This document shows, piece by piece, positions 593 to 37,969 of a DNA stretch of 64,000 nucleotides. The position numbers and the translations under genes are program-made. The notes below the pieces were generated by a model, which worked only from the letters and a program-made list of their open reading frames with translations, ran no database searches and was not told where the DNA came from. The stretch lies in assembly GCA_964450885.1 (NCBI GenBank), contig CAYVFE010000002.1:15192-79191 (forward strand), written 5' to 3'. Position 1 is the first letter of the stretch; each line of letters opens with the position of its first letter. This stretch comes from an uncultured Gammaproteobacteria bacterium. GTDB taxonomy: Bacteria; Patescibacteriota; Microgenomatia; Levybacterales; GWA1-39-11.

Positions 593-1006
593 ATGCTTAC
601 AAGTATTGAGAAAACCGGTCTGAAAAAGACAAAGACTAGGGAGGCGCTTATAGATATCTTTCGGAGACAATCAAAGCCTATCGATGTCTCTGAATCGATC
701 AGCCTACTTAGAAAAAAGGGTGTTTATTCTGACCAGGCAACTATATACAGGAGTTTGAATACATTTTCTGATAGGGGACTTGTCCGAGAAGTCCATTTCA
801 ATGATGGAGTAGTGCGCTATGAACTTGCAGATGTACCAGAGCACCATCATGCAGTATGCGTACGGTGTCACGCCATAGAGGATATTATGGATTGCTCTGT
901 AGATAGAATCGAAACCCAAATTTCAAAGAAGAAGGGATTTTCAGTCTTATCGCATTCTCTGGAATTTTTTGGGTTATGTAAAAATTGTAAATCTAAAAAA
1001 TCATGA
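593..1006 (+). CDS. zur: Fur-family metal-uptake transcriptional regulator (Zur-like)
   Basis: 137 aa. Fur-like metal-binding motifs HHHAVCVRCHAIEDI and C-x2-C near the C-terminus. Stop overlaps the start of a ZIP zinc transporter (1003). Confidence 0.7.
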   Translation: MLTSIEKTGLKKTKTREALIDIFRRQSKPIDVSESISLLRKKGVYSDQATIYRSLNTFSDRGLVREVHFNDGVVRYELADVPEHHHAVCVRCHAIEDIMDCSVDRIETQISKKKGFSVLSHSLEFFGLCKNCKSKKS

Positions 1007-1830
1007 ATTTATTGACATATATTATCTTATTTACTGCATTAGGGGGTGTTTTGTCACTTATCGGCGGCACATTGCTCTTGATGAATCGGAAGCTTGTCAA
1101 AATATCCCACTTGCTTTCATCCTTTGCGGCAGGAGCACTATTGGGAGCTGTCTTTTTTGAATTACTTCCGGAGGGAGTCCATCAGGCAGAGGAATCCATC
1201 GGGATATTGATGTTCTTTGTATATGTGCTGGGCGGGATTATAGTGTTCTACCTGCTCGAAAGGGTTTTACACTGGCAACACAATCATGATAGCGAGAGCG
1301 TAAAGGAGCCGATAATACCTATGATCATAATAGGAGATACAATTCATAATTTTGTTGATGGTATTGCGATTGCTGCTGCATTTTTAGTGAATATTCCGCT
1401 GGGAATAATAACCGCCTTAGTTGTTGGAGCTCATGAGATTCCGCAAGAAATAGGGGATTTTGGGGTTCTTTTGAGAAAAGGCCTTAAGAGAAGAAAAATC
1501 ATACTTATAAATTTTCTCAGCGCATTGGTTTCACTAATGGGGGCAATACTTACTTTTTATATAGGAACGTCATTTATAAATCTTTCAGTAATTTTTATAG
1601 CTATATCAGCCGGATTTTTCATGTATATTTCGCTTTCAAATCTTATCCCTGAAATTCATCAGGAAAATAGACGCGGTTTTGCAGTTACCGAAACTGCCGC
1701 GCTTCTTGGCGGACTACTGATTACCTATATTGCGATCACAAGTCTTCACAATTTTATTCCGGAAGACGCGCATGGGCATAATGAAGAGATTCACATAGAT
1801 GAGAATTTGAAAGGTGAGGATCTGGAATAA
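1003..1830 (+). CDS. zupT: ZIP-family zinc transporter (ZupT-like)
   Basis: 275 aa polytopic membrane protein with the ZIP signature HEIPQEIGDFGVL and a His-rich loop (HWQHNHDSE). Translationally coupled to the Fur-family gene. Confidence 0.75.
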   Translation: MNLLTYIILFTALGGVLSLIGGTLLLMNRKLVKISHLLSSFAAGALLGAVFFELLPEGVHQAEESIGILMFFVYVLGGIIVFYLLERVLHWQHNHDSESVKEPIIPMIIIGDTIHNFVDGIAIAAAFLVNIPLGIITALVVGAHEIPQEIGDFGVLLRKGLKRRKIILINFLSALVSLMGAILTFYIGTSFINLSVIFIAISAGFFMYISLSNLIPEIHQENRRGFAVTETAALLGGLLITYIAITSLHNFIPEDAHGHNEEIHIDENLKGEDLE

Positions 1831-1853
1831 TAGTCTTTAGAAGATAATTAAAT

Positions 1854-2309
1854 TTACTCGGTAACGGTAAGCGTTCCGACCATTCCCATTTCGCGGTGAT
1901 TTCCTACTGAGCAATAATATTCAAATTCGCCTGCTTCTGTTGGGGTAAATTCAACCTCTACCGTTTCACCTGGGTTTGCAACATCTGATCTAACGTCCAA
2001 TTCATCTACCACAAAGTCATGGGGCATATCTACTGCATTTAATACTACTTTTACAGTTTCACCAACTTGCACTGAAATTTCTGATGGATCAAACGAAAAA
2101 TCTTCTCCAGTCATATCTATAGTTCTAACCTCCATCATCGCATCTTCCTCCATCATCATATCGTCTGTAGATTCCTCTTCGACTATCGTTTCTGTGTTTT
2201 CTTGGGTCTCTACTGCTGCATCAGGAGTATTTTGTGAGTTTAAATAAAAATAACCTGCTGCTGCGGCTATTACGATTATGACTATCGCTATGAGGATTTT
2301 GGAATTCAT
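1854..2309 (-). CDS. Membrane-anchored cupredoxin (plastocyanin/halocyanin-like blue copper protein)
   Basis: N-terminal TM helix, acidic linker, C-terminal type-1 copper ligand pattern (H...YYCSVGNHREMGM). Confidence 0.6.
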   Translation of the reverse strand: MNSKILIAIVIIVIAAAAGYFYLNSQNTPDAAVETQENTETIVEEESTDDMMMEEDAMMEVRTIDMTGEDFSFDPSEISVQVGETVKVVLNAVDMPHDFVVDELDVRSDVANPGETVEVEFTPTEAGEFEYYCSVGNHREMGMVGTLTVTE

Positions 2310-2350
2310 TTATTAAGTTTTAATATAATTTTATTGCTTTGTCAAATATG

Positions 2351-2421
2351 TGGACCCGAGGGGAATTGAACCCCTTTCTTATCCATGCCATGGATACATT
2401 CTACCGGTGAACTACGGGCCC
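2351..2421 (-). tRNA. tRNA-Cys (anticodon GCA)
   Basis: Reverse complement GGGCCCGTAGTTCACCGGTAGAATGTATCCATGGCATGGATAAG...GGGTTCAATTCCCCTCGGGTCCA folds as a cloverleaf. Anticodon loop TGGCATG, T-loop GGTTCAATTCC. Boundaries approximate. Confidence 0.65.
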
Positions 2422-2588
2422 TACGTCAAATCAAGAATATCGTCTTCGCAAAAAAGTAAACTTATTTTGCTGCGACATTTATTCTGATTCTCCTTATTTC
2501 GCCCCGCTAAGCGGGACGACAGGTCTAGAAGTAGATTTTATCAAATATAATAGTTATTTCCTAGACAAGCGGTGGTAAAATAGGGCAC

Positions 2589-3788
2589 ATGCATATACCC
2601 CTGGCAGAAAAACTAAGACCCCAGAATCTCGATGAGTTTATAGGCCAACAGCATCTGGTGGCAAAAGGAAAACCTATCCGCAGGATGATCGTGACTGGAA
2701 ATGTGACCAGTATGATCCTCTGGGGCCCTCCAGGCTGTGGCAAGACGACTCTTGCGACAGTCATCGCCAACAGCATAGACGCAAACTTCGTATTTTTCTC
2801 AGCAGTAACCAGTGGAGTAGAGCAGGTCAGAAAAATCATAAAAGAAGCAGAGGAGGTTAGGAAGGAAAAAAAGCAAAAGACCATACTTTTCGTGGACGAG
2901 ATCCATAGATTCAATAAATCCCAGCAGGATGCTTTCCTACCCCATGTAGAAAACGGAACTATAATCCTGATTGGAGCGACAACCGAAAATCCAGGCTTCA
3001 GGATCAACGCACCACTTCTGTCGAGGAGCCAGTTATTCGTTCTAAAACAACTTTCAGATGAAGACATCGAGAAGGTAGTCAAACGTGCAATTTCTTTTTA
3101 TCCCAAGGCAACAATCGATAATGAAGCCATTTCGCATATCATTCATTTTTCAAATGGCGACGCGCGGTTTGCTATCAACGCCGTAGAGACTGCAGTAACC
3201 GTAAAAAACAGAATAAATCTCAAAGTTGCAGAAGAAGCAATTCAGAAGAGGGCGGTATATTATGATAAAAAAGGGGATTATCACTATGACACGATTTCTG
3301 CATTTATAAAATCGATGCGTGGAGGTGACCCAGACGCGACTCTTCATTATCTCGCACGTATGATAAAGGCAGGTGAGGATCCGATATTTATCGCAAGACG
3401 CATGGTTATATTTGCTGCAGAGGACATAGGAAATGCCCAACCCACTGCATTAGTACTTGCTACAAGTTCTATGCAGGCAGTCCATATGATAGGTCTTCCT
3501 GAAGCACAACTTATACTTGCACAGACTGCAACTTATCTTGCTACGAGTAAAAAATCGATTGCATCAACAAATGGAATATTTGCAGCTCTCTCTGATATCG
3601 AGATAGAAAATCTTCCGCCTATCCCCATGCATTTGAGAAATGACGCAAATAAAGTAATGAAGGGCCTCGGATACGGAAAAGGACACATAAGATACGCATG
3701 GCGCGAAGAAAAAAAGGGCAAGAAAATAAACCAGAGCTATCTACCGGAGAGATTAAAGAATAAAAAGTACTACGAAAAAGATTGGTAG
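2589..3788 (+). CDS. rarA: Replication-associated recombination protein A (AAA+ ATPase RarA/MgsA)
   Basis: 399 aa. Walker A GPPGCGKTTLA, Walker B ILFVDEIHRFNK, C-terminal MgsA domain. Confidence 0.85.
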   Translation: MHIPLAEKLRPQNLDEFIGQQHLVAKGKPIRRMIVTGNVTSMILWGPPGCGKTTLATVIANSIDANFVFFSAVTSGVEQVRKIIKEAEEVRKEKKQKTILFVDEIHRFNKSQQDAFLPHVENGTIILIGATTENPGFRINAPLLSRSQLFVLKQLSDEDIEKVVKRAISFYPKATIDNEAISHIIHFSNGDARFAINAVETAVTVKNRINLKVAEEAIQKRAVYYDKKGDYHYDTISAFIKSMRGGDPDATLHYLARMIKAGEDPIFIARRMVIFAAEDIGNAQPTALVLATSSMQAVHMIGLPEAQLILAQTATYLATSKKSIASTNGIFAALSDIEIENLPPIPMHLRNDANKVMKGLGYGKGHIRYAWREEKKGKKINQSYLPERLKNKKYYEKDW

Positions 3789-3809: not shown

Positions 3810-4388
3810 ATGACCGGTAGAACCCATGATCTTGCAGCTTTCACAGCACTTACTGCGACTGTCGCATATTTTCCTCTGACAGAAATGACTCTCGCAACAG
3901 CGATAGTAGCGTTCACTGCAAACATGGTCGGCGCCTTAGCACCCGACATAGACCAGACAACATCTTCTATATGGGAAAAGGTGAGATTTGGAAGAATACT
4001 AAGCGGCATCGTATCTCCGCTTTTTGGGAAACACAGATTTTTGTCTCATTCTTTAGTCGGATTAGTCTTATTTGCTATAGGAGTTAGGTTTTTACTAGGA
4101 CTGATAGGTGCGGTGCTCTTGGTCGATATGAATATCGTATGGATCTCTTTTATGATTGGGTTTATTTCTCACCTTCTGACTGATATGCTGACTCGGGATG
4201 GAATACCACTTTTATTTCCCTTTCCAATAAAATTTGGCATCCCGCCAATTAGGGCCTTTAGAATCAAAACCAAAGGATTTGCAGAAAAAAGCATCATCTT
4301 TCCCGGCTTGATACTCCTTAATATGTATATCTTCTATATGAACTACGAAAAGTTTCTGGAGTTTTTCAGAGAATACTTAATACGATAA
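3810..4388 (+). CDS. YdjM-like membrane-bound metal-dependent hydrolase (DUF457)
   Basis: Pattern LAPDIDQ...HRFLSHSL...SHLLTDMLTRDGIPLLFP parallels E. coli YdjM (LPDIDH...HRGFTHSL...SHILADMLTPAGVPLLWP). Confidence 0.55.
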   Translation: MTGRTHDLAAFTALTATVAYFPLTEMTLATAIVAFTANMVGALAPDIDQTTSSIWEKVRFGRILSGIVSPLFGKHRFLSHSLVGLVLFAIGVRFLLGLIGAVLLVDMNIVWISFMIGFISHLLTDMLTRDGIPLLFPFPIKFGIPPIRAFRIKTKGFAEKSIIFPGLILLNMYIFYMNYEKFLEFFREYLIR

Positions 4389-4398
4389 AATCTGTAAT

Positions 4399-4416
4399 CC
4401 CGCTTGCGGGATTAAG
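4399..4416. terminator. GC-rich hairpin AATCCCGC-ttgc-GGGATT between ydjM-like (+) and tRNA-Leu (-); T-run on the minus-strand side
   Basis: Perfect 7-bp inverted repeat followed on the minus strand by ACAGATTTTAT. Likely terminator for the minus-strand tRNA transcript and/or the convergent plus gene. Confidence 0.35.
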
Positions 4417-4492
4417 TAAGGAGGAATAGACGAGAAACCGAAGTTTTTTGATTTTTCAAAAACGAAGGTGTGAAGTCTTAGTTCCGACGTAG

Positions 4493-4615: not shown

Positions 4616-5338
4616 CTAGTCGTTTAGATGTTCTTTTTTGAGGGTCTTTTTAATATCCTTGTACGTTGCATGCTCCATTTGTTTTTTTGTAAGTCTAAGC
4701 TCTCTTTTATACTTTATATACTCGATTACCATCGGCAGGATAGAAATCACGATTATAACCACCACTGCATAGTGGAAATTGTGCTGTATAAATGGCAGCC
4801 CACCGAAAAAGTACCCCGCGAAAGTAAATAAAGTTACCCAAAGAAAACCACCTACTATATTATATAAAAGAAAAGTGCGGTAGTGCATTTTCCCTACACC
4901 TGCTACAAATGGAGCAAACGTTCTTAAAATAGGAAGGAAGCGCGCCAAAATTATAGTTTTTCCGCCATGTTTATCATAGAACTCACGGGTTTTTTCCAAA
5001 TATGCTTTTTTGAATATCCTTGAGTTTTCTTTACTAAATACTCGAGGCCCTATGTGATGTCCTATCCAATAATTTACTGTGTCTCCGAGTATCGCCGCAA
5101 CAAGTAGAGATAAATAAGTAATAACTATATTTAAATGACCTGCTCCAGAAAGAGTTCCTGCTACAAAAAGCAATGAATCTCCAGGTAAAAAGGGAGCAAC
5201 TACTAGTCCTGTTTCTGCAAATACTATCCCAAAAAGGATCACGTATGTAAAAGGCCCGAACGCGTTTATGATGTTTGCCAGATGCTCATCCAGGTGAAGA
5301 AAGAGGTCGAATAGAAAGATTATTAAATCCATTTTCAA
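4616..5338 (-). CDS. DedA/SNARE-associated family membrane protein
   Basis: 240 aa. DedA hallmark [18 protein letters not shown] and a multi-TM profile. Confidence 0.7.
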
Positions 5339-5380: not shown

Positions 5381-6322
5381 CTATTCGTGCACAGGTGGAG
5401 TCTCACCAAGCTCGATAAGAGTGTAGTCGAGTAGGTCTTTCATCTCCTGTCTTCTGTTCTGGCTATTCAAAAGCACCGCGATAATAGTTCTATCGTTATA
5501 CTCCAGATAGGTAATGAGACACAGTCCTGCTTCCCAGGTAAATCCCGTCTTTACTCCTATAACCCCAGGATAGGAAGTCAAAAGGTTGGTGTCGTTATAT
5601 AAGTAAAAATACTTGTGATATTTAGTAGCGGGCAGTTCTTTTTCATATGTTCCTACAACTTTTCTAAATGTTTGGTTTTCCATGGCAAGCTTTGTAAGTT
5701 TTAGAAGATCGACCGCAGTTGAGTACTGATCACCATCACCCTCAAGACCAGAGGGATTAGTAAAATTAGTGTCATTCATGCCGAGTTGTTTTGCACGAAT
5801 ATTCATTTCATCCACAAATCCATTTCGTCCATAATAACTTCCCTCAGCTATGACCTCTGCGGCATCGTTTCCCGACGGAAGAAGAAGTCCATACAATAGC
5901 TCTTCAAGCCTAAAAACCTCCCCCTCAGAGACCCCCATAGAATTTTCGCCAACCGACGCAGCGGACTTGCTGACTCTATATATTTTGTCAGCTCCCTCCT
6001 CTAGGGCGAGAAAGGCAGTCATTATTTTCGTAAGAGACGCCATAGGAAGCTTTTCATTTATGTTTTTTGAGAACACCATCTTTCCGGAAGACATGTCATA
6101 AGAGGCTGCAGACTGTGCAGAAAGTACTAATCTTTGATCGAATATACCACCCACTTGAGGAGTATTGGGCGTCCAAGTTGGGTAGACAGGATCCAGCTCC
6201 TCTTCAGGCTGTGCAACAGGAGAAAGCATAGAGCCTAAAGATAGATTGGGGTTTTTCAAAAAAAGCTGCGCGGAAAACAAAACGAATGCGATAACCACTG
6301 CTACAAATATACCTTTTAGCAT
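5381..6322 (-). CDS. dacA: D-alanyl-D-alanine carboxypeptidase (S11 peptidase, PBP5/DacA-like)
   Basis: Signal/TM anchor, SxxK active site (ASLTKIMT), SGN motif (LPSGNDAA), KTG motif (GVKTGFT). Confidence 0.75.
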   Translation of the reverse strand: MLKGIFVAVVIAFVLFSAQLFLKNPNLSLGSMLSPVAQPEEELDPVYPTWTPNTPQVGGIFDQRLVLSAQSAASYDMSSGKMVFSKNINEKLPMASLTKIMTAFLALEEGADKIYRVSKSAASVGENSMGVSEGEVFRLEELLYGLLLPSGNDAAEVIAEGSYYGRNGFVDEMNIRAKQLGMNDTNFTNPSGLEGDGDQYSTAVDLLKLTKLAMENQTFRKVVGTYEKELPATKYHKYFYLYNDTNLLTSYPGVIGVKTGFTWEAGLCLITYLEYNDRTIIAVLLNSQNRRQEMKDLLDYTLIELGETPPVHE

Positions 6323-6391
6323 TAAATCATTATAAAAATATATGATGTGTGTTGCAACAGAATACTACAAAATGTATTATTAGAAGAATAA

Positions 6392-7684
6392 ATGTCAAAG
6401 CAACTAGATGTTTTTCTCGAAACAGCACAACTTATAAAAAACGTAGGGAAAAAGTATAACTACAAAGAAGATGTTATCGAGGCATTCATCAATCCAAATA
6501 GGATAGTCGAGGTATCGTTGCCTGTGGAAATTGACGGGAAGATCAAGGTATTTAAAGGATTCAGGTCTCAGCATAACAACACACACGGCCCCTATAAAGG
6601 TGGAATAAGATTCCATGAAGAAGTAACACGTTCTGAAGTAATGGCGCTTTCGATATGGATGAGCTTAAAAACAGCTGTAATAGGACTTCCTTACGGCGGA
6701 GCAAAAGGCGGAGTAATCGTTGATCCAAAAGAATTATCCGAAAAGCACTTGGAGAATTTATCCCGCGAATATGCAAGAAAGATATACGATATGATAGGCC
6801 CAGACAAAGATATTCCAGCGCCTGATGTAAATACAAATCCAAAAATCATCAACTGGATGGTAGATGAATATGTAAAAATCGCAAAGGAAAAGGAAAGTAC
6901 GTATTCGGAAGAAGCGCTTTATGGGACTTTTACAGGAAAATCTATCAAAAATCATGGGTTAGATGGACGTGAAGAGGCGACTGGATTTGGAGGAGCAGTG
7001 ATCCTTCGTGAGCTCGCAAAAAAGCAAGGTAAAAATCCATCTGATATGACTGTGGCAGTCCAGGGATTTGGAAATGTGGGTTATTTTTTCAGCAAATTTG
7101 CTTCAGATTTTGGATTCAAGATAGTTACCGTTAGTGACTCGAAAGGTGCTGTTACGGATAAATCAGCAGCCCTGCACACAGGACTTGATATCGAAAAAGT
7201 ATATGCATGTAAGTTAGAAAAGGGAATGATTTCAGGATGCTACTGCGTTGGAGGAGTCTGTGACATAAATGAGGGGAAAGAGTTATCAAACGAACAGCTT
7301 CTTACACTTCCTGTTGATGTTCTGGTGCCATCAGCGCTGGGTAACGTAATAAATGAAAATAATATGAAAGACATAAAAGCAAAAACGATAATCGAGATGG
7401 CAAATGGCCCAGTCAGCCCTGATGCTCATAAATATCTTACAGAAAAAGGTGTTGTAATTGTCCCTGATATCCTAGCAAACGCGGCAGGAGTTACAGCTTC
7501 ATATCTCGAATGGAGACAAAATGTGGAGGGCATAAGGATGCAAAACAAAGAGGTTTTGGACGAACTTGAAAAAATACTTTCAAAGGCTTTTTCAAATGTC
7601 TGGAAAGAGTCTGAGGATAGAAATATCGACTTGAGATATGCCTCTTATGGAATAGCCTTCAAAAGGTTACTAGGCAATCCCTAA
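6392..7684 (+). CDS. gdhA: Glutamate dehydrogenase (NAD(P)+)
   Basis: 430 aa. GDH glycine-rich substrate motif GLPYGGAKGG and Rossmann motif GFGNVG. Confidence 0.85.
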   Translation: MSKQLDVFLETAQLIKNVGKKYNYKEDVIEAFINPNRIVEVSLPVEIDGKIKVFKGFRSQHNNTHGPYKGGIRFHEEVTRSEVMALSIWMSLKTAVIGLPYGGAKGGVIVDPKELSEKHLENLSREYARKIYDMIGPDKDIPAPDVNTNPKIINWMVDEYVKIAKEKESTYSEEALYGTFTGKSIKNHGLDGREEATGFGGAVILRELAKKQGKNPSDMTVAVQGFGNVGYFFSKFASDFGFKIVTVSDSKGAVTDKSAALHTGLDIEKVYACKLEKGMISGCYCVGGVCDINEGKELSNEQLLTLPVDVLVPSALGNVINENNMKDIKAKTIIEMANGPVSPDAHKYLTEKGVVIVPDILANAAGVTASYLEWRQNVEGIRMQNKEVLDELEKILSKAFSNVWKESEDRNIDLRYASYGIAFKRLLGNP

Positions 7685-7688
7685 TATT

Positions 7689-8279
7689 ATGAGCACCACA
7701 AATTACAAAAAACACAGCTCGCCCAATCCTATTCAAAAAAAACTGATAGATAATTTCTATTCGACTGTAATAAAGATCCTAAGGCCACTTGAGGTAGATA
7801 GCATTCTGGATGTCGGGTGCGGAGAGGGTTTTACTTTAGATAAATTCAAAAAAGAGGGTATAGGTAAAAAGTTATCAGGAATCGACTATTCGGATGATGC
7901 ACTAGAACTAGGAGCAAAAATCTACCCAGATCTCGATCTTAAAAAAGGAGATATATATGACATAAAAGCAAAAGAAAATTCTTTCGATCTTGTCATGGCA
8001 ACTGAGGTTCTTGAGCATCTGGATGATCCGAATAAAGCTCTCAAGGAACTTATCAGGGTAAGCAGAAAATATATAATGCTTTCTGTCCCAAATGAACCAT
8101 TTTTTATAGGAGCAAATTTTTTGAGAGGGAAATACCTCAAAAGCTTTGGAAATCACCCAGAGCACATAAACCATTGGACATTTATTGGTTTTGAAAAGTT
8201 TTTAAAGAAAAACGGGCTGAAGATAGTTGAGAGCAAACATCCTTTTGCGTGGACACTGATACTTGCAGAGAAAAAATAA
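7689..8279 (+). CDS. Class I SAM-dependent methyltransferase
   Basis: SAM-binding motif I LDVGCGEG and motif post-I. 196 aa. Confidence 0.6.
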   Translation: MSTTNYKKHSSPNPIQKKLIDNFYSTVIKILRPLEVDSILDVGCGEGFTLDKFKKEGIGKKLSGIDYSDDALELGAKIYPDLDLKKGDIYDIKAKENSFDLVMATEVLEHLDDPNKALKELIRVSRKYIMLSVPNEPFFIGANFLRGKYLKSFGNHPEHINHWTFIGFEKFLKKNGLKIVESKHPFAWTLILAEKK

Positions 8280-20124: not shown

Positions 20125-21096
20125 ATGGCGTTAATTGATGACATAATTATTAAAGTGAAGGCGGGAAGAGGGGGAAATGGCGGCAGGTCGCATAAGGTCT
20201 ATTATGGTAGTACAAAAACTCATCCTGATGGGGGAAATGGCGGTCGTGGGGGAAATGTCTTCTTTGAAGGAACAACGAATTTAAATGATCTTAGCGAATT
20301 CCGATTCAAAAAGGAAATAAAAGCAGGGGATGGAGAAAAGGGAATGAATAAGGACCTGGATGGAAAATATGGAGAAGATGTCACGGTACTTGTCCCCCTT
20401 GGAACAACTATCATAGATATGGATACCCAAGAGACTGTAGAGATTTTGGAAGAAAATTTGCCGATAAAAATAGCTCGTGGCGGACGTGGAGGGATAGGGA
20501 ACCATGATCAAAAGATCGTTCCTGGACGGATAACGCGTACGACTATTGAAGGGCGACCGGGCGAGCAAAAAGAACTTCATCTAATTTTGAATCTGATAGC
20601 AGACGTGGGCTTGGTAGGCCTCCCAAATGCAGGCAAGAGTTCGCTTCTTACATCGCTTACGAAAGCTACTCCGAAAATAGGAAATTACCCGTTTACGACC
20701 CTTGAACCAAATCTGGGAACTATGGACGAAAATAAAAAGAGAGTAGTTATCGCTGATATTCCTGGTCTGGTCGAGGGCGCGTCAATGGGTAAGGGTCTGG
20801 GGATACAATTTTTGAAACATATCCAAAAAACAAAGGTTCTACTTCATATGATAGACATAACAACTCCGGATCTTATGAACACCTACCAGACGATCCGAAA
20901 AGAGTTCGAAGATTATGATCCGTCTTTGCTTTCAAAAAAAGAGATAATCCTTTTGACCAAAATCGACCTAACAGACAAAGACTATATCGAAAAAGCAATT
21001 AAAAAGCTTGAGAAAACGAAAAAGGAAATACTTACGGTCTCGATCTATGATGAGAAAAGCCTTAATGAATTAAAGGACTTTTTGTCGAGAATATAA
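20125..21096 (+). CDS. obg: GTPase Obg/CgtA
   Basis: Gly-rich Obg fold repeats (GGNGG) at the N-terminus and G1 motif GLVGLPNAGKSS. 323 aa (no C-terminal TGS/OCT extension). Confidence 0.9.
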   Translation: MALIDDIIIKVKAGRGGNGGRSHKVYYGSTKTHPDGGNGGRGGNVFFEGTTNLNDLSEFRFKKEIKAGDGEKGMNKDLDGKYGEDVTVLVPLGTTIIDMDTQETVEILEENLPIKIARGGRGGIGNHDQKIVPGRITRTTIEGRPGEQKELHLILNLIADVGLVGLPNAGKSSLLTSLTKATPKIGNYPFTTLEPNLGTMDENKKRVVIADIPGLVEGASMGKGLGIQFLKHIQKTKVLLHMIDITTPDLMNTYQTIRKEFEDYDPSLLSKKEIILLTKIDLTDKDYIEKAIKKLEKTKKEILTVSIYDEKSLNELKDFLSRI

Positions 21097-21368
21097 TGGA
21101 AACAAATTCTCCCACATTCTACGTCTACATGCTTAAATGTGCTGACGGAACTTTTTACATAGGCCAAACAAACAATCTAGAAAAAAGACTGAGGGCGCAC
21201 AATGGAACACTTAAGGGTGGAGCAAAATACACAAAATACAGATCCCCGGTAACGATTGTTTACTCTGAAAAGAGCATTTCTAAGTCTGCCGCGCTGCGCA
21301 GAGAGCTTGCACTTAAAAAACTGACAAGAAAACAAAAAGAAAGCCTGATAAATAGTGTTTCAAAATGA
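21096..21368 (+). CDS. GIY-YIG nuclease-domain protein
   Basis: YVYMLKCADGTFYIGQTNNLEKRLRAHN matches GIY-YIG. Start ATG overlaps the obg stop (TAATG). Confidence 0.7.
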   Translation: METNSPTFYVYMLKCADGTFYIGQTNNLEKRLRAHNGTLKGGAKYTKYRSPVTIVYSEKSISKSAALRRELALKKLTRKQKESLINSVSK

Positions 21369-27790: not shown

Positions 27791-27883
27791 CCTAGTAAAA
27801 GCTTAGGCTTAGCATTTCGGCCAGATGAAACATCAGGCCTCAATTTGACAGCCTGCATTTACTTTTTCAAAATGCTAAAGCAT

Positions 27884-27988
27884 TTTGACTGTCGTAAATT
27901 CGATAGAATTTACGAAATAAGGAGGATGAGGATAAATGTTGAAGATCCGATCTATCGGATCGAAAACGATATCCTGCATCCGACGCTT
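27884..27988 (+). repeat. tRNA-leader structured element, copy A (immediately 5' of tRNA-Val TAC)
   Basis: Hairpin CGTAAATTC/GAATTTACG, conserved core AAATAAGGAGGATGAGGATAAATGTTGAAG, hairpin ATCCGAT-ct-ATCGGAT, conserved tail CGAAAACGATATCCTGCATCCGACGC. See finding. Confidence 0.6.
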
Positions 27989-28062: not shown

Positions 28063-28066
28063 CTGG

Positions 28067-28999
28067 ATGCTTATAGTTACAGGAACAGTTGCATATGACT
28101 ACATCATGGACTTTCCTGAGAGTTTTTCGGATCATATTCTTCCAGACAGCCTTCATAAGATAAACCTTTCATTTATAGTAGATAGATTCGAAAAAAGACG
28201 TGGAGGAACCGCAGGGAATGCGTCATATTCACTAGGTTTACTTAAGATCCCGCATAAATTAGTCTCATTTGCCGGCAAAGACTTTGATGACTACGCAAAA
28301 ACCTTCAAAAAATTAAAAATCGATATCTCGAAAATCAACATCGACAAGAAAAACTATACGGCGACAGGTTTTGCTATGACTGACAAATCGGATAACCAGA
28401 TATGGGGGTATTTTTATGGGGCAGCAATTAATTCCTCGAAGACAAACCTGAGCTTTGCAGACCCGGAAAAAGACCTCGTGCTGGTAGGTCCCAGTGGTGC
28501 AAGAGGATCTATGGCTACTGTAAATGAATGCATAAAGTATAAGATCCCCTATATGCTGGACCCTGGATTCATCTTGACCGAGGTTAGTGCTTACGATCTT
28601 ACAAAAGCTGTCAAAAACTCTACCTATGTGATAGGTAATGATTATGAAATTGAGCTTATTTCAAATAGAGTCAAAGGCTGGGAAAAGATAAAGAGAAAAA
28701 AGACTGTGATAAAGACTCTTGGAAAAGACGGCGCAGAGATAGAAGAGGATGGTAAAACGATAAAAATAGAACCCTCAAAAGCAAAAAGGGCAGTAGACCC
28801 CACCGGAGCGGGTGACGCGTGGAGATCGGGGTTTCTGGCAGGGTTACACATGAATTTAGACCTCAGAACTGCAGGCAGGATGGGAGCAGTTGCAGCATCT
28901 TTTGCGGTAGAGCACTATGGAACACAAGAACATAGATATTCTATAGCAGAATTCAAAAAACGGTATAGAAAAAACTATAATGAAGTGTTAAACTTTTGA
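28067..28999 (+). CDS. PfkB-family carbohydrate/nucleoside kinase (probable adenosine kinase)
   Basis: C-terminal PfkB signature DPTGAGDAWRSGFLAG. Start trimmed to Met 28067 (MLIVTGTVAYDY), downstream of the two tRNAs. Directly followed by ahcY, suggesting adenosine salvage. Confidence 0.65.
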   Translation: MLIVTGTVAYDYIMDFPESFSDHILPDSLHKINLSFIVDRFEKRRGGTAGNASYSLGLLKIPHKLVSFAGKDFDDYAKTFKKLKIDISKINIDKKNYTATGFAMTDKSDNQIWGYFYGAAINSSKTNLSFADPEKDLVLVGPSGARGSMATVNECIKYKIPYMLDPGFILTEVSAYDLTKAVKNSTYVIGNDYEIELISNRVKGWEKIKRKKTVIKTLGKDGAEIEEDGKTIKIEPSKAKRAVDPTGAGDAWRSGFLAGLHMNLDLRTAGRMGAVAASFAVEHYGTQEHRYSIAEFKKRYRKNYNEVLNF

Positions 29000-30841: not shown

Positions 30842-31129
30842 CTACGCTATCATCAATGATATTAGCGCAATAAGTCCTAATGATTCCCAATAGTTGATCT
30901 CCCTAAAGCCAAATACGAGTGGTACTATATTATTCCACAAAGCCTTGAACCAGAAATTTAAGACGGGAATAAGAATAAGTGCGATAGCATAGACTGCTAT
31001 GAATTCACCGAATGAACCGATCGGCTCAGTAGGCAACAGATATGGATCAGCAACCATCCCGAACAGAAGAACAGCAAGAATGGAAATCGCAACCAGCGGT
31101 TTGTTGACCTTTTTTTCTTTAGTGGCCAT
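30842..31129 (-). CDS. Hypothetical small membrane protein
   Basis: 95 aa, 3 predicted TM helices. Confidence 0.3.
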   Translation of the reverse strand: MATKEKKVNKPLVAISILAVLLFGMVADPYLLPTEPIGSFGEFIAVYAIALILIPVLNFWFKALWNNIVPLVFGFREINYWESLGLIALISLMIA

Positions 31130-31159
31130 ATAATATCACCTCCCTCTAGATTTAAACTG

Positions 31160-31231
31160 AGCGGGAGACGGGATTTGAACCCGCGACCTCCTCGTTGGCA
31201 ACGAGGCGCTCTACCACTGAGCTACTCCCGC
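31160..31231 (-). tRNA. tRNA-Gly (anticodon GCC)
   Basis: Reverse complement GCGGGAGTAGCTCAGTGGTAGAGCGCCTCGTTGCCAACGAGGAGGTCGCGGGTTCAAATCCCGTCTCCCGCT. Confidence 0.75.
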
Positions 31232-31330
31232 AGCGTCGGAACGCAGAATGATGCTTTCGATCTGTTTAAAATCAGATCTTCAGCTTTCATTCTCTTCCTC
31301 CTTATTTCAAAACTCTAAAGAGTTTTGACA
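31232..31330 (-). repeat. tRNA-leader structured element, copy D (5' of tRNA-Gly on the minus strand)
   Basis: Minus-strand sense: TGTCAAAACTCT-tt-AGAGTTTTGAAATAAGGAGGAAGAGAATGAAAGCTGAAGATCTG-attttaaa-CAGATCGAAAGCATCATTCTGCGTTCCGACGCT then the tRNA. Confidence 0.6.
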
Positions 31331-31511
31331 AATTGCTGCGCAATTTATGTATTTTAATTTTTAAAAGACCTTTTATCTTCCTTATTTAGACTCCGCTATA
31401 CGTAATCGGCAGTAATCTCGCAAAGCGAGATTAAGTTGCGAAAAAGCCGACATGATGAATGAAGTCAGGTGTTCCACCTGACGAAATGTGAATGTCGTGA
31501 CTTTTTCGCTG

Positions 31512-31584
31512 TGCCGAGACCAGGAATCGAACCCGGATAACGTGTTCTTCAGACACGCGCCTTGACCAACTTGGCAATCTCGGC
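31512..31584 (-). tRNA. tRNA (anticodon GAA, Phe) - assignment tentative
   Basis: Reverse complement GCCGAGATTGCCAAGTTGGTCAAGGCGCGTGTCTGAAGAACACGTTATCCGGGTTCGATTCCTGGTCTCGGCA. 73 nt, T-loop GGTTCGATTCC. Unusual D-arm. Confidence 0.5.
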
Positions 31585-31683
31585 TCGTCGGAATGCAGGA
31601 TAGCGTTTTCGAATTTAGCTAAAACTAAATTCTTCAACATTCATCCTCATCCTCCTTACTTCAAAATACTTAGTATTTTGACA
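31585..31683 (-). repeat. tRNA-leader structured element, copy C (5' of the tRNA at 31512-31584 on the minus strand)
   Basis: Minus-strand sense: TGTCAAAATACT-aa-GTATTTTGAAGTAAGGAGGATGAGGATGAATGTTGAAGAATTTAG-tttta-gCTAAATTCGAAAACGCTATCCTGCATTCCGACGAG then the tRNA. Confidence 0.6.
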
Positions 31684-31856
31684 ATTAACTTGTTAAATTG
31701 CAAAGCAATTTTTCTCTAAAAAAGTAATTCCGTTTCAGCGAAATTAAGTTGCGAAGCAGCAAGCCAGAAAGCGAAAATCCGATCTAGTCGGATTGGAACG
31801 TCAAGGCTTTGACTGATTCGTATGTAGTATAGTGAATTTTCAGGCAAAACTCAATA

Positions 31857-32171
31857 TTAAGAAAGTTTTCTAGCTCTTCTATAATGGAAGGCAAAAAGCG
31901 CAGATCCTACCACGAGGAATGTAATTGAGCTTGATATATCAGTAACTTCTTTAACCTTTCTTTCACGCGAAAGCTCTTCTAGACATTTATCTTGAGGCTG
32001 AGGGTAGCTGCAGCGTCCTGCTTCATAAGGCAAATAGTAGTTATCCAGAAACACCTTTCTGACTCCGTAGTCAGACAATTTGAATACGCCTATTATGAGA
32101 AGAATTATCCCTATGGCTGAAAAGACATAAAAGTATGCAGTTCTTATAGAATGGCCCAAATTAGTTGCCAT
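31857..32171 (-). CDS. Hypothetical small membrane protein
   Basis: 104 aa, two TM helices and a Cys-containing loop. Confidence 0.3.
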   Translation of the reverse strand: MATNLGHSIRTAYFYVFSAIGIILLIIGVFKLSDYGVRKVFLDNYYLPYEAGRCSYPQPQDKCLEELSRERKVKEVTDISSSITFLVVGSALFAFHYRRARKLS

Positions 32172-33237: not shown

Positions 33238-33801
33238 TTGAAAGTTACAAAAACTATGAAAAGAATACTTATAACAGTCGTGATAATTATTATTACGGCC
33301 CTAGTATTGCCACAAAATGCAATGGCTTTTGAGAAGCAACAAACAGCTTCTGCGAGGCTTGCTATAACTATTGAAAACGAAAAGTCTGACGATATACGTG
33401 TGCAGGCTTTAGAGAACATCTTTGCAAAATACAATTCACCACTTGCAGGAGAGGGTAAATCGTATGTTGAACTTGCCGATAAGAACGGCGTTGACTGGAA
33501 GTTACTTCCGTCTATCGCAGGGCTTGAGTCATCTTTTGGTAAGCGCCTGATGCCTAATTCATATAACGCGTATGGGTGGGGTGGAGGACACATTTACTTT
33601 GACTCATGGTCGGATGGAATTGACACTATCACAAAGTCTCTTAAGACACGCTACTATGCACGTGGGGCGGATACAGTGTGGACGATCGGTCCTATATATG
33701 CTGAGTCTCCAACATGGGCTGTACGCGTAAACTCTTTTATGGAGAAAATCGAGAAAGAATACGTCGATCTGCTTCGCAATGAAGTAGTGATGACTATCTA
33801 A
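33238..33801 (+). CDS. Paralog 2 of the putative peptidoglycan hydrolase-like protein
   Basis: LENIFAKYNSPLAGEGKSYVELADKNGVDWKLLPSIAGLESSFG ... YGWGGG parallels 32444..33037. Confidence 0.35.
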   Translation: MKVTKTMKRILITVVIIIITALVLPQNAMAFEKQQTASARLAITIENEKSDDIRVQALENIFAKYNSPLAGEGKSYVELADKNGVDWKLLPSIAGLESSFGKRLMPNSYNAYGWGGGHIYFDSWSDGIDTITKSLKTRYYARGADTVWTIGPIYAESPTWAVRVNSFMEKIEKEYVDLLRNEVVMTI

Positions 33802-33848
33802 TTTGTTGATTGGAAAAACTGAGCGTTTTCATAGTATAATTCACCTTA

Positions 33849-33929
33849 CGCCCGGGTGGTGAAATGGTAGACGCGCTGGTTTTAGGAACCAGTACCGAAA
33901 GGTGTGAAGGTTCAAGTCCTTTCCCGGGC
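33849..33929 (+). tRNA. tRNA-Leu (anticodon TAG)
   Basis: GCCCGGGTGGTGAAATGGTAGACGCGCTGGTTTTAGGAACCAG-long arm-GAAGGTTCAAGTCCTTTCCCGGGCA. Confidence 0.7.
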
Positions 33930-33930
33930 A

Positions 33931-34027
33931 CTACGTCGGAATGCAGGATAGCGCTTTCAATCCGATAAATCGGATTTTCAGCCTTAATCCTCATCCTCCT
34001 TACTTCAAAAAGCTGATGCTTTTTGAC
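33931..34027 (-). repeat. tRNA-leader structured element, copy E - inverted, abutting the 3' end of tRNA-Leu(TAG)
   Basis: Minus-strand sense: TGTCAAAAAGC-atca-GCTTTTTGAAGTAAGGAGGATGAGGATTAAGGCTGAAAATCCGAT-tt-ATCGGATTGAAAGCGCTATCCTGCATTCCGACGTA. Same architecture as copies A-D but not followed by a tRNA on its own strand. Confidence 0.55.
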
Positions 34028-34102
34028 AGAAAAATATAACATTAGAGCTCTTAGGAAAAAGTCTAACTTTACAAACCTAACCTCAAACACTATAATATCC
34101 AA

Positions 34103-34987
34103 ATGGCAAAAGACACGAAAACAACCAAACAAAAAAGCCCTGCTGCAAAACAAGAGCAGAAAAAAGAACTCGTGCGCCGCGATGACGGCACTATCGAATT
34201 AAATATTACGGTTCCTGCTGCAACAGTCCAAAAGGAAAGAGGCAAGATCGAAGACGCACTAGTCAAAGGCATAGAGCTTCCTGGTTTTAGAAAGGGAATG
34301 GCACCAAGAGATCTAGCGTTAAAAAAAATCTCTGAGGAAAAAATCCGCGAAGAGCTGCTTCGTGAAGTAATTACAAATGAATATAGAAAAGCAGTTGAAA
34401 AGCACAAACTTCAACCTGTTATAAATCCACAGATACATATCGAGGCATTCGAGAATGGTCAGGATTTGCAGTTTACTGCAGAAATTGCCGAAGAACCCAA
34501 GGTTGAATTAGGTGATTACAAAAAAGCCATAAAAGATGTCAGCGCAAAAGGAAAGATCGTCACAGAGAAAGGCAAAGAGCCGCAGAAACCGTCAATCGAT
34601 GCTGTGATTGCCGCCGGAATGTCTCAGGTAACCGTCAAAATCCCCAACGTAATCATCGAACGCGAGGTCAGCAGACTATTATCCCAAGTAATTGATGAAG
34701 TAAAACAGCTAGGCATGACTCTGGAAAACTATCTTGATTCAAAAAAGATCTCTGTAGAACAGCTGAGAGAAGAGTACAAGAATAGGGCGGAAAGAGACAT
34801 AAAACTTGAATTCTTCTTGAGAAAAGTCGCTGATGAAGAAAAGATAACGGTCACAGCAGACGATATTACTGCTGCTATCGCAAAAATTGAGGACAAGGAT
34901 CAACAGGAAGAAATCAAGAAAAATCCATACCTTGTGGCAAGTATCATAAGACAACAAAAAACTATTGATTTCTTGACTCAAATTTGA
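34103..34987 (+). CDS. tig: Trigger factor (short form, apparently lacking the PPIase domain)
   Basis: Ribosome-binding signature LPGFRKGMAPRDL (TF GFRxGxxP motif), then a TF C-terminal-like arm. Only 294 aa. Confidence 0.6.
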   Translation: MAKDTKTTKQKSPAAKQEQKKELVRRDDGTIELNITVPAATVQKERGKIEDALVKGIELPGFRKGMAPRDLALKKISEEKIREELLREVITNEYRKAVEKHKLQPVINPQIHIEAFENGQDLQFTAEIAEEPKVELGDYKKAIKDVSAKGKIVTEKGKEPQKPSIDAVIAAGMSQVTVKIPNVIIEREVSRLLSQVIDEVKQLGMTLENYLDSKKISVEQLREEYKNRAERDIKLEFFLRKVADEEKITVTADDITAAIAKIEDKDQQEEIKKNPYLVASIIRQQKTIDFLTQI

Positions 34988-37821: not shown

Positions 37822-37870
37822 CTTCATTGTCTAGGTTATTTTATTCTGGTAAAATACGAATGCTTTAAAA

Positions 37871-37969
37871 GTCAAAAAGCATCAGCTTTTTGAAGCAAGG
37901 AGGATGAGGATAAATGTTGAAGAATTTATCTCTGGTAAATTCGAAAACGATATCCTGCATCCGACGCAA
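37871..37969 (+). repeat. tRNA-leader structured element, copy B (5' of tRNA-Val GAC)
   Basis: GTCAAAAAGC-atca-GCTTTTTGAAGCAAGGAGGATGAGGATAAATGTTGAAGAATTTA-tctctgg-TAAATTCGAAAACGATATCCTGCATCCGACGCAAG then the tRNA. Confidence 0.6.

Follow-up and report, generated by a model that had tools for sequence, protein, structure and literature searches.

A dispersed two-hairpin element family at tRNA gene ends in a Levyibacteriota-like genome and its possible leader and terminator roles

In a 64-kb stretch of DNA from an uncultured bacterium (contig CAYVFE010000002.1, positions 15,192 to 79,191 of the forward strand; here referred to as the window), the repeated flanks of two tRNA genes at positions 31130 to 31860 are copies of an element that forms a dispersed repeat family and not a local duplication. 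The element is ~99 nucleotides (nt) long; in it, a conserved linker joins a variable hairpin (P1) to a second hairpin that is long and irregular (P2). Using covariance models, we identified 10 copies in the window, four of which lie within this 700-bp stretch. We consider it rather probable that they represent a lineage-specific two-hairpin family that marks the boundaries of tRNA transcription units, with type A copies as leaders and inverted copies as terminator-like elements.

Copies and polarity in the window

We compared the flanks of the ten tRNA genes in the window, an earlier note on this stretch having asked whether tRNA loci other than the two at 31130 to 31860 carry the same unit. 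A ~100-nt sequence is located 5' of tRNA-Ala(GGC), tRNA-Val(TAC), tRNA-Gly(GCC), tRNA-Phe(GAA), and tRNA-Val(GAC), and its reverse complement directly follows tRNA-Leu(TAA) and tRNA-Leu(TAG). The covariance model R1, which was built on ten clear copies, of which seven lie in the window and three elsewhere, and run with filters off, returned ten matches in the window, including three that were absent from its training set, i.e., 27792 to 27890 (minus strand; 41 bits), 31411 to 31510 (plus strand), and 31723 to 31822 (plus strand). The model R2, built on 21 copies, returned the same ten copies, with the next match at E > 0.5. Simple pattern searches pointed in the same direction: the 5' motif GAAATAAGGAGGATGAGGAT occurs six times in the window (0.01 expected), and a two-anchor pattern matched five times (0.00 expected; none in shuffled sequences).

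Nine of the ten copies end 0 to 3 nt from a tRNA end, and it is always the GACG end that faces the tRNA; such strict abutment with fixed polarity is unusual. Five type A copies make up the 5' leaders of tRNA-Ala, tRNA-Gly, tRNA-Phe, and two tRNA-Val genes. Among the five inverted copies, four abut tRNA 3' ends (three tRNA-Leu genes and tRNA-Phe), while the fifth faces the 3' end of a protein-coding gene. In the same genome, leader copies at tRNA-Gly(TCC) and tRNA-Pro(TGG) lie within the 10 kb that precede the window (L069). Taking the window and this region together, 7 of 12 tRNA genes carry the covarying ~100-nt leader, and a related inverted copy is present at the 3' end of four. The copies and their immediate surroundings in the window are as follows.

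2422 to 2521, minus strand: type A element, 5' leader of tRNA-Ala(GGC); R1 87.1 bits.
4393 to 4491, plus strand: inverted copy with AAGGAGG, read from sequence, abutting the tRNA-Leu(TAA) 3' end; R1 69.1 bits.
27792 to 27890, minus strand: inverted type B copy abutting the tRNA-Leu(GAG) 3' end; R1 41.2 bits, outside the training set.
27890 to 27987, plus strand: type A element, 5' leader of tRNA-Val(TAC); R1 99 bits; fold z = -6.95.
31159 to 31231, minus strand: tRNA-Gly(GCC), by ARAGORN; Rfam tRNA 76.4 bits; CCA not encoded.
31232 to 31330, minus strand: type A element, whole 5' leader of tRNA-Gly; R1 95.8 bits; fold -34.7 kcal/mol, z = -5.2.
31330 to 31356, minus strand: spacer module upstream of the Gly leader, with a hairpin AAATTGC-nnn-GCAATTT (31330 to 31346) directly 5' of the element; repeat D8, inverted repeat I1.
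31411 to 31510, plus strand: inverted type B copy, its 3' end abutting the tRNA-Phe 3' end; R1 33.3 bits, E = 2e-6; R2 55.1 bits; fold -44.3 kcal/mol.
31511 to 31584, minus strand: tRNA-Phe(GAA), by ARAGORN; Rfam tRNA 62.4 bits; CCA not encoded.
31584 to 31683, minus strand: type A element, 5' leader of tRNA-Phe; R1 95 bits; fold z = -4.3.
31695 to 31711, minus strand: spacer hairpin AAATTGC-aaa-GCAATTT upstream of the Phe leader; repeat D8, inverted repeat I1.
31723 to 31822, plus strand: inverted degenerate type B copy that abuts no tRNA; R1 21 bits, E = 0.003.
33932 to 34028, minus strand: type A sequence in inverted position, read from sequence, abutting the tRNA-Leu(TAG) 3' end; R1 100.7 bits.
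37870 to 37968, plus strand: type A element, 5' leader of tRNA-Val(GAC); R1 104.7 bits.

Read on the minus strand from 31860 to 31130, the order is an open reading frame (ORF), a terminator-like copy, a small hairpin, a leader, tRNA-Phe, a second terminator-like copy, a -10-like box with a small hairpin, a leader, and tRNA-Gly; an ORF with its own ribosome-binding site follows 30 nt after tRNA-Gly. The Gly leader begins with UGUC and continues with P1 (31328 to 31307), the linker GAAAUAAGGA, the long hairpin P2, and CCGACGCU, which ends at the tRNA 5' end. The -10-like TAAAAT in its spacer (31356 to 31351, minus strand) was read from the sequence and was not called by the promoter scan. The inverted copy behind tRNA-Phe contains the distal motif discussed below (31425 to 31442) and a hairpin at 31464 to 31482 (P2d); its P2 base, GCGAAAAAG...CUUUUUCGC, has the order A-tract, hairpin, U-tract. 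The degenerate copy, the 3' end of which faces the 3' end of the ORF at 31857 to 32171 (minus strand), likewise contains the distal motif (31738 to 31755) and a hairpin (31776 to 31794), which on the minus strand is followed by UUCGCUUUCU. Outside the 700-bp stretch, the inverted copy at 4393 to 4491 also comes after the stop codon of a ydjM-like gene (3810 to 4388).

The earlier note had described 31130 to 31860 as two occurrences of a unit consisting of a distal hairpin motif, a structured leader, and a tRNA gene, and had explained them by tandem duplication of the complete unit with possible divergent promoters. The features that it described are confirmed and are far beyond chance. Both tRNA genes were recovered by ARAGORN and Rfam, each is preceded by a similar ~100-nt leader (direct repeats D1/D2, spaced by 352 to 354 nt), and the unit does occur twice. 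In a self-comparison of the region, for which the note had suggested a dot plot, the collinear repeats were the leaders D1/D2, the small hairpin D8, and the distal motif D5 (31424 to 31447 and 31737 to 31760). Some positions shifted by up to ~17 nt. The distal motif, GCGARATTAAGTTGCGAA, exists at 31425 to 31442 and 31738 to 31755 on the plus strand rather than at 31408 to 31430 and 31735 to 31760; the hairpin GTCAGGTG-ttc-CACCTGAC spans 31464 to 31482 and not 31465 to 31487; and the hairpin AATCCGA-tctag-TCGGATT spans 31776 to 31794, ~9 nt away from 31767 to 31785. The 18-nt core of the motif has exactly two matches in the 64 kb at ≤3 mismatches (0.10 expected).

The duplication explanation, together with its divergent promoters, is contradicted by the data, and we consider it extremely improbable. 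In its favor, the features recur at a distance of ~352 nt within 31130 to 31860, and in the window the 18-nt distal motif is common to these two units only. However, the two tRNAs differ, and the element, with copies beside eight different tRNAs, occurs at six further places in the window. The Phe leader is closer to the copies at tRNA-Val(GAC) (82% identity), tRNA-Leu(TAG) (78%), and tRNA-Val(TAC) (75%) than to the Gly copy (72%). Since the Phe and Gly leaders do not pair up as nearest relatives within the family, local tandem duplication is unsupported. Overall identity between the two type B copies of the region is only 58 to 59%. The note had set the distal motif and its hairpins apart from the leader, but they belong to two further copies of the two-hairpin element, inverted and diverged, which R1 finds although it was trained without them. 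The distal matches are homologous and not due to chance. The motif runs from the 3' arm of P1 through the linker into the beginning of P2, and the hairpins map to the apical stem of P2. As for the promoters, the TTGACA hexamers are indeed present on the plus strand at 31325 to 31330 and 31678 to 31683, but they are the reverse complement of the 5' edge of the element, TGTCAA; no -10 box follows at 16 to 18 nt, and the promoter scan calls neither. Nor is the hexamer conserved, as the 5' boundary in other copies reads TGTCGA, TGTCGT, AGTCAA, or TGTAAT. The two-unit arrangement is also conserved in L062, a syntenic contig of a relative (see below). As judged from these sequence comparisons, the repeated module was assembled from family members in an arrangement that is older than the split from L062.

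Two side observations concern the same flanks. The hairpin AAATTGC-nnn-GCAATTT is found directly 5' of several leader copies across genomes (the window; L005, about 4974 to 4990; L062, upstream of 11993); its stem is constant and its loop variable, and it could be an operator, part of a promoter region, or another module of the mosaic. Moreover, listed ORFs of 47 to 119 codons cross elements and tRNA genes (31431 to 31640, minus strand; 31175 to 31318, plus strand; 33794 to 34153, minus strand). Those at 31431 to 31640 and 33794 to 34153 start just downstream of the AAGGAGG of the element, and annotation pipelines are likely to miscall such ORFs as genes.

Structure and predicted roles

P1 is a hairpin of 9 to 10 bp with variable sequence and a conserved TGTC directly 5' of it. 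The linker GAARUAAGGA connects it to P2. In P2, the base (GGAGGAUGAGGAUA / UAUCCUGCAUCC) is conserved and is followed by a helix of 3 bp, an internal loop (GAAG / CGAAA), and an apical hairpin that varies; copies end in GACG plus 1 to 3 nt. All copies share this one fold, with single-sequence z-scores of -3.2 to -7.0. In an alignment of 21 copies, 94% of cells are in standard pairs (64.7% in shuffles), 31 of 32 pairs have compensatory changes on both sides, and the covariation score is 0.738, compared with 0.222 in shuffles and ≤0.18 with the 3' partners slid, all of these figures being somewhat inflated because the alignment was fitted to the model. An independent MAFFT/RNAalifold analysis of ten copies agreed, with compensatory changes in 23 of 32 pairs. 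The secondary structure is thus strongly supported. Among the non-Watson-Crick cells of the leader copies, nine are G-U and one is A-C, and this excess of G-U over A-C is consistent with an RNA read on the tRNA strand. In folds of the predicted pre-tRNAs, P1, P2, and the cloverleaf stay separate domains, with 6 to 8 unpaired nt (GACGNN) before +1.

In searches of the whole window with Rfam 15, whose families include T-boxes, tRNA-like elements, known leaders, and ribozymes, only tRNAs reached the gathering score; on 31100 to 31900 with E values up to 10, the best non-tRNA matches were far below threshold (e.g., AaHKsRNA22, 19.7 versus 39.8 bits). Four other accounts of the conserved parts were considered and rejected. 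For a closing helix of UGUC with GACG, which would create a three-way junction, C-G to A-U covariation at columns 4/25 favors P1, and type B copies lack GACG. A small protein gene behind AAGGAGG is not conserved: start codon, frame, and length vary between copies, some lack AUG, and the substitutions are compensatory for pairing, so that what is constrained is base pairing rather than a reading frame. P1 is not a general terminator hairpin of this genome, as P1-type hairpins occur in the window only within the full element. Finally, complementarity between leader and trailer around the tRNA, as in rRNA processing stems, was ruled out by inspection of the tRNA-Phe flanks.

In the reading that we favor, a type A copy would be transcribed as the entire 5' leader, from a start near the conserved UGUC to 1 to 3 nt before tRNA +1. 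Type A copies are located between a promoter-like box and tRNA +1, ending 1 to 3 nt before the tRNA. The promoter scan called TTGACA-17-CAAAAT at 27845 to 27873 (plus strand), which lies 16 nt before the Val(TAC) leader and inside the inverted copy at 27792 to 27890, and TTGTCT-17-TAAAAT with an extended -10 TG at 37827 to 37855, 14 nt before the Val(GAC) leader; the expected start sites would be ~8 to 10 nt upstream of these leaders. At tRNA genes without an element, the -10 box is 10 to 20 nt from the tRNA. Because promoter-like boxes thus lie upstream of the element, type A copies probably constitute the whole 5' leader. A promoter inside the element (TTGAAG ... TAAATG or TATCCT) was rejected, since spacing and hexamers are poor and not conserved.

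Cleavage of bacterial pre-tRNAs by RNase P is established. Here, RNase P would remove the leader and release an RNA of ~105 nt with a hairpin at each end, in which the Shine-Dalgarno-like linker GAARUAAGGA would be exposed. The inverted copies, which are mostly of type B and lie at tRNA 3' ends or behind an upstream gene, would present a long hairpin followed by a U-run on the tRNA strand and would most likely terminate or insulate transcription before the next promoter-leader-tRNA unit. In type B copies, one strand of the P2 base is rich in A and the opposite strand is rich in U (e.g., GCGAAAAAG-CCGACAU...AUGUCGUGAC-UUUUUCGC), and a hairpin is followed by U4 to U6 on either strand; as read from the sequence, this layout is like that of a bidirectional intrinsic terminator. 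A terminator-like site was called at 31794 to 31776 (minus strand), just after the ORF at 31857 to 32171. Type A copies read in the sense direction lack a U-run. The repeated module of the earlier note would accordingly read as an upstream terminator-like copy, a promoter with the small hairpin, a leader copy, and a tRNA, built twice from family members.

We note that a pfkB-like gene probably starts with an ATG 3 nt after the 3' end of tRNA-Val(TAC) (28063 to 28070), leaving no room for a ribosome-binding site. This junction suggests co-transcription of tRNA and mRNA, with a near-leaderless mRNA after excision of the tRNA. In L062, the two genes are ~130 nt apart, and the spacer between them contains an inverted copy of the element.

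Distribution among relatives and alternative explanations

The neighboring genes in the window are bacterial (ahcY, pfkB, tig, and pheT), and the nearest AhcY homologs are labeled Levybacteria or Patescibacteria; the window derives from a Levyibacteriota-like bacterium of the candidate phyla radiation. The strict two-anchor pattern had no match in 185,579 species genomes. A loosened pattern gave 17 loci in the species genomes, of which only L005, upstream of tRNA-Pro in a Levyibacteriota genome, was genuine; in metagenomes it gave 43 loci, the only genuine ones being L026 and L059, both upstream of tRNA-Lys, and L060, which is identical to the window. A scan of viral sequences yielded one false positive. 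Through AhcY homologs, we reached the syntenic contigs L062 to L067, which compare with the window as follows.

L062 and L063 (AhcY 87% identical): element on both sides of tRNA-Val(TAC), at tRNA-Gly, and on both sides of tRNA-Phe; missing at tRNA-Leu(TAG) and tRNA-Val(GAC).
L064 (AhcY 87%): element at the tRNA-Leu(GAG) 3' end, on both sides of tRNA-Val(TAC), and at the tRNA-Phe 3' end; no copy found upstream of tRNA-Gly or tRNA-Phe.
L065, L066, and L067 (AhcY 80 to 82%): no element even with filters off; L067 has the same tRNA genes in synteny.

These sequence searches indicate that the family is confined to a narrow clade of uncultured Levyibacteriota (Patescibacteria), and a literature search found no described equivalent in Patescibacteria or the candidate phyla radiation. 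Two empty sites were compared with their filled orthologs in the window, that of tRNA-Ala in L005, which is syntenic with window positions 1000 to 3300, and that of tRNA-Val(GAC) in L062. In both empty/filled pairs, the upstream -10 box is retained (TGnTAAAAT or TACAAT), which places the element between the promoter and the tRNA gene. Within L062, the copies at tRNA-Gly and tRNA-Phe share an identical P2 base, GGAGAAACCGACUA / UAGUCGAGUUUU, that is wholly unlike that of the window and still pairs, pointing to concerted evolution within the genome. The linker and P2 base are nearly identical in the window, L005, L026, and L059.

Several observations weigh against the reading of the family as leaders and terminators of tRNA units. 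Syntenic relatives at ~80% AhcY identity keep the same tRNA genes without the element, which is therefore dispensable for tRNA expression and could be selfish. The scan called only one inverted copy as a terminator (31794 to 31776); in the other inverted copies the U-tracts are short or lie inside the stem, and the U4 to U6 after the core stem of type B copies were seen by eye. Inverted copies show no strand bias (10 G-U versus 9 A-C), and the inverted type A copies at tRNA-Leu(TAG) and tRNA-Leu(TAA) might carry -10-like boxes and support antisense transcription, as read from the sequence, the scan calling none. A simple role as spacer or insulator would not account for AAGGAGGAUGAGGAU...AUCCUGCAUCCGACG being strictly conserved in several genomes. 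Lastly, the start sites, RNase P release, and termination, and with them any benefit to the cell, are predictions from sequence.

The first of these points leads to the possibility that the element is a selfish, non-autonomous mobile element, similar to miniature inverted-repeat transposable elements (MITEs) or REPINs, that prefers tRNA gene ends, where copies spread and homogenize and any role in tRNA expression is incidental; pairing would then be kept because a mobilizing enzyme or a single-stranded DNA intermediate needs the hairpins. The variable presence at orthologous tRNA sites among close relatives, the absence of the family at ~80% AhcY identity, the concerted evolution in L062, and a truncated copy in the same contig (8684 to 8750) all fit this possibility, as do the TGTC immediately 5' of a hairpin, in the manner of GTAG in REPs, the fixed tRNA-facing end on either side of the tRNA, and the other small inserts and GIY-YIG genes in the tRNA flanks of relatives. 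On the other hand, the alignment revealed no terminal inverted repeats, the 5' end TGTCAAAA and the 3' end ...TCCGACG not being inverted repeats of each other, and no target-site duplication was found at tRNA-Ala or tRNA-Val(GAC) when the empty sites in L005 and L062 were compared with the filled sites of the window. No transposase was found among ~20 ORFs scanned near elements, the window having been screened only in part. Copies that are only 50 to 82% identical within one genome and differ by compensatory changes argue for long maintenance and not recent bursts, and the G-U over A-C bias of the leaders argues for selection at the RNA level. We regard a selfish origin as unlikely, while noting that it is compatible with a role at transcription-unit boundaries and does not exclude it.

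The conserved linker raises another alternative, namely that type A copies are genes for a small regulatory RNA made 1:1 with the tRNA. RNase P, cutting at the tRNA that follows or at the cloverleaf of an antisense tRNA, would generate its 3' end, and the exposed linker UAAGGAGG would act in trans, for instance through base pairing with CU-rich RNAs such as the 16S anti-Shine-Dalgarno sequence or as the binding site of a protein that recognizes GGA. A layout in which a conserved single-stranded linker joins a 5' hairpin to a stable one on the 3' side is consistent with such an RNA, as are the near-identity of linker and P2 base among the four loci named above and the inverted type A copies at tRNA-Leu(TAG) and tRNA-Leu(TAA), which retain the full sequence with -10-like boxes just upstream; regulatory RNAs derived from tRNA spacers, such as 3'ETS-leuZ, provide a precedent (PMC8383071). 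However, type B copies as well as the Gly and Phe copies of L062 have altered or lost parts of AAGGAGG...CCGACG while keeping the structure. In addition, the Shine-Dalgarno-like sequence is partly paired within P2. We therefore regard a trans-acting leader RNA as quite improbable, and give only slightly more credence to the broader proposal that type A represents an undescribed class of noncoding RNA, made in stoichiometric amounts with tRNAs, released by RNase P, and acting in trans through UAAGGAGG, for instance on the anti-Shine-Dalgarno sequence of the ribosome, and/or a new mobile element homing to bacterial tRNA boundaries. The boundary-marking reading, with type A leaders and terminator-like inverted copies, is the one that we prefer.

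The tRNA flanks of relatives also hold other insertions. Where the element is missing, L067 (12506 to 12607 and 8849 to 8960) and L064 (upstream of 13781) have a different insert of ~80 to 100 nt that contains TTCGRCGRGCTCAGGGTTG. A ~22-nt duplication of the neighboring tRNA end flanks this insert: a second copy of the 5' part of tRNA-Phe, GTCGAAGTTGCCAACGTGGTCA, lies 101 nt upstream, and a portion of the tRNA-Leu(GAG) 3' end recurs in front of tRNA-Val. These inserts look like a second, unrelated family of tRNA-boundary insertions or like att-site scars. In addition, small GIY-YIG (PF01541) ORFs lie ≤250 nt, and mostly ≤75 nt, from tRNA genes in relatives. They may be stand-alone genes, similar to those of homing endonucleases, that make use of tRNA flanks; the one GIY-YIG ORF of the window (21096 to 21368) is not beside a tRNA. 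The ORFs in relatives are the following.

L062: 14496 to 14693.
L064: 2317 to 2652 and 13983 to 14243.
L067: 2953 to 3198, 14532 to 14831, and 20918 to 21187.

In L069, a gene for a large serine recombinase with Resolvase/Recombinase domains (6215 to 7759, ~2 to 4 kb upstream of the window start) overlaps at its 3' end by ~20 nt with the element-carrying tRNA-Pro(TGG) (7740 to 7814, opposite strand) and may be part of an integrated element.

Comparison with known systems

Bacteria of the candidate phyla radiation are uncultured and, to our knowledge, almost nothing has been learned of their RNA biology. If the leader is functional, tRNA units in this clade would be packaged in an unusual manner, with dedicated structured leader and terminator cassettes and possibly a new leader-derived RNA. 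A selfish element would represent, for bacteria, a rare case of targeting to the edges of tRNA genes; such targeting is so far known mainly from eukaryotic retrotransposons. Annotation pipelines would gain from a model of the element, given the spurious ORFs with strong look-alikes of ribosome-binding sites beside tRNA genes.

The element resembles the REP/BIME/REPIN sequences of Enterobacteria and Pseudomonas, which are mobilized by RAYT (PMC3116915, PMC3337134), in being a short interspersed extragenic hairpin repeat with a tetranucleotide beside the hairpin, present in both orientations, forming mosaics with other small motifs, varying between lineages, and having proposed roles in termination or transcript stability. 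It differs from them in its length of ~100 nt, its two distinct hairpins, and its conserved internal loops, and hairpins of the P1 type are seen in the window only within the full element. The tetranucleotide is TGTC and not the GTAG of REPs; copies abut tRNA ends with fixed polarity, whereas REPs are generally found at the 3' ends of protein-coding genes; and copies diverge by compensatory changes, with no RAYT identified among the ~20 ORFs scanned. Similarly to the bacterial MITEs Correia/NEMIS, BOX, RUP, and ERIC, the element is modular, ~100 nt long, predicted to be co-transcribed with its neighbors, and stably folded, and those families can supply promoters, terminators, and processing sites. 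However, terminal inverted repeats and target-site duplications were not found here, and strict abutment to tRNA ends is foreign to those families.

As to leader-derived RNAs, 3'ETS-leuZ of Escherichia coli is likewise a non-tRNA segment of a precursor that is freed by tRNA-processing nucleases and may persist as a structured RNA (tRNA spacer-derived RNAs are reviewed in PMC8383071). RNAs of that type come from single loci and have known small-RNA partners, while the element described here is multi-copy, associated with many tRNAs, and located on the 5' side. In MALAT1/mascRNA, as predicted for type A copies, RNase P forms the 3' end of an upstream structured RNA by cutting at a tRNA or tRNA-like fold that lies downstream. 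MALAT1/mascRNA belongs to eukaryotes and relies on a mimic of a tRNA, whereas here the downstream fold is a genuine tRNA and the processing is predicted. Finally, type B copies resemble bidirectional intrinsic terminators in that a GC-containing hairpin is bordered by an A-tract and a U-tract where convergent or tandem units meet, but they are much longer and have the GAAG / CGAAA internal-loop architecture and the additional P1, and simple terminator rules pick out a single copy.

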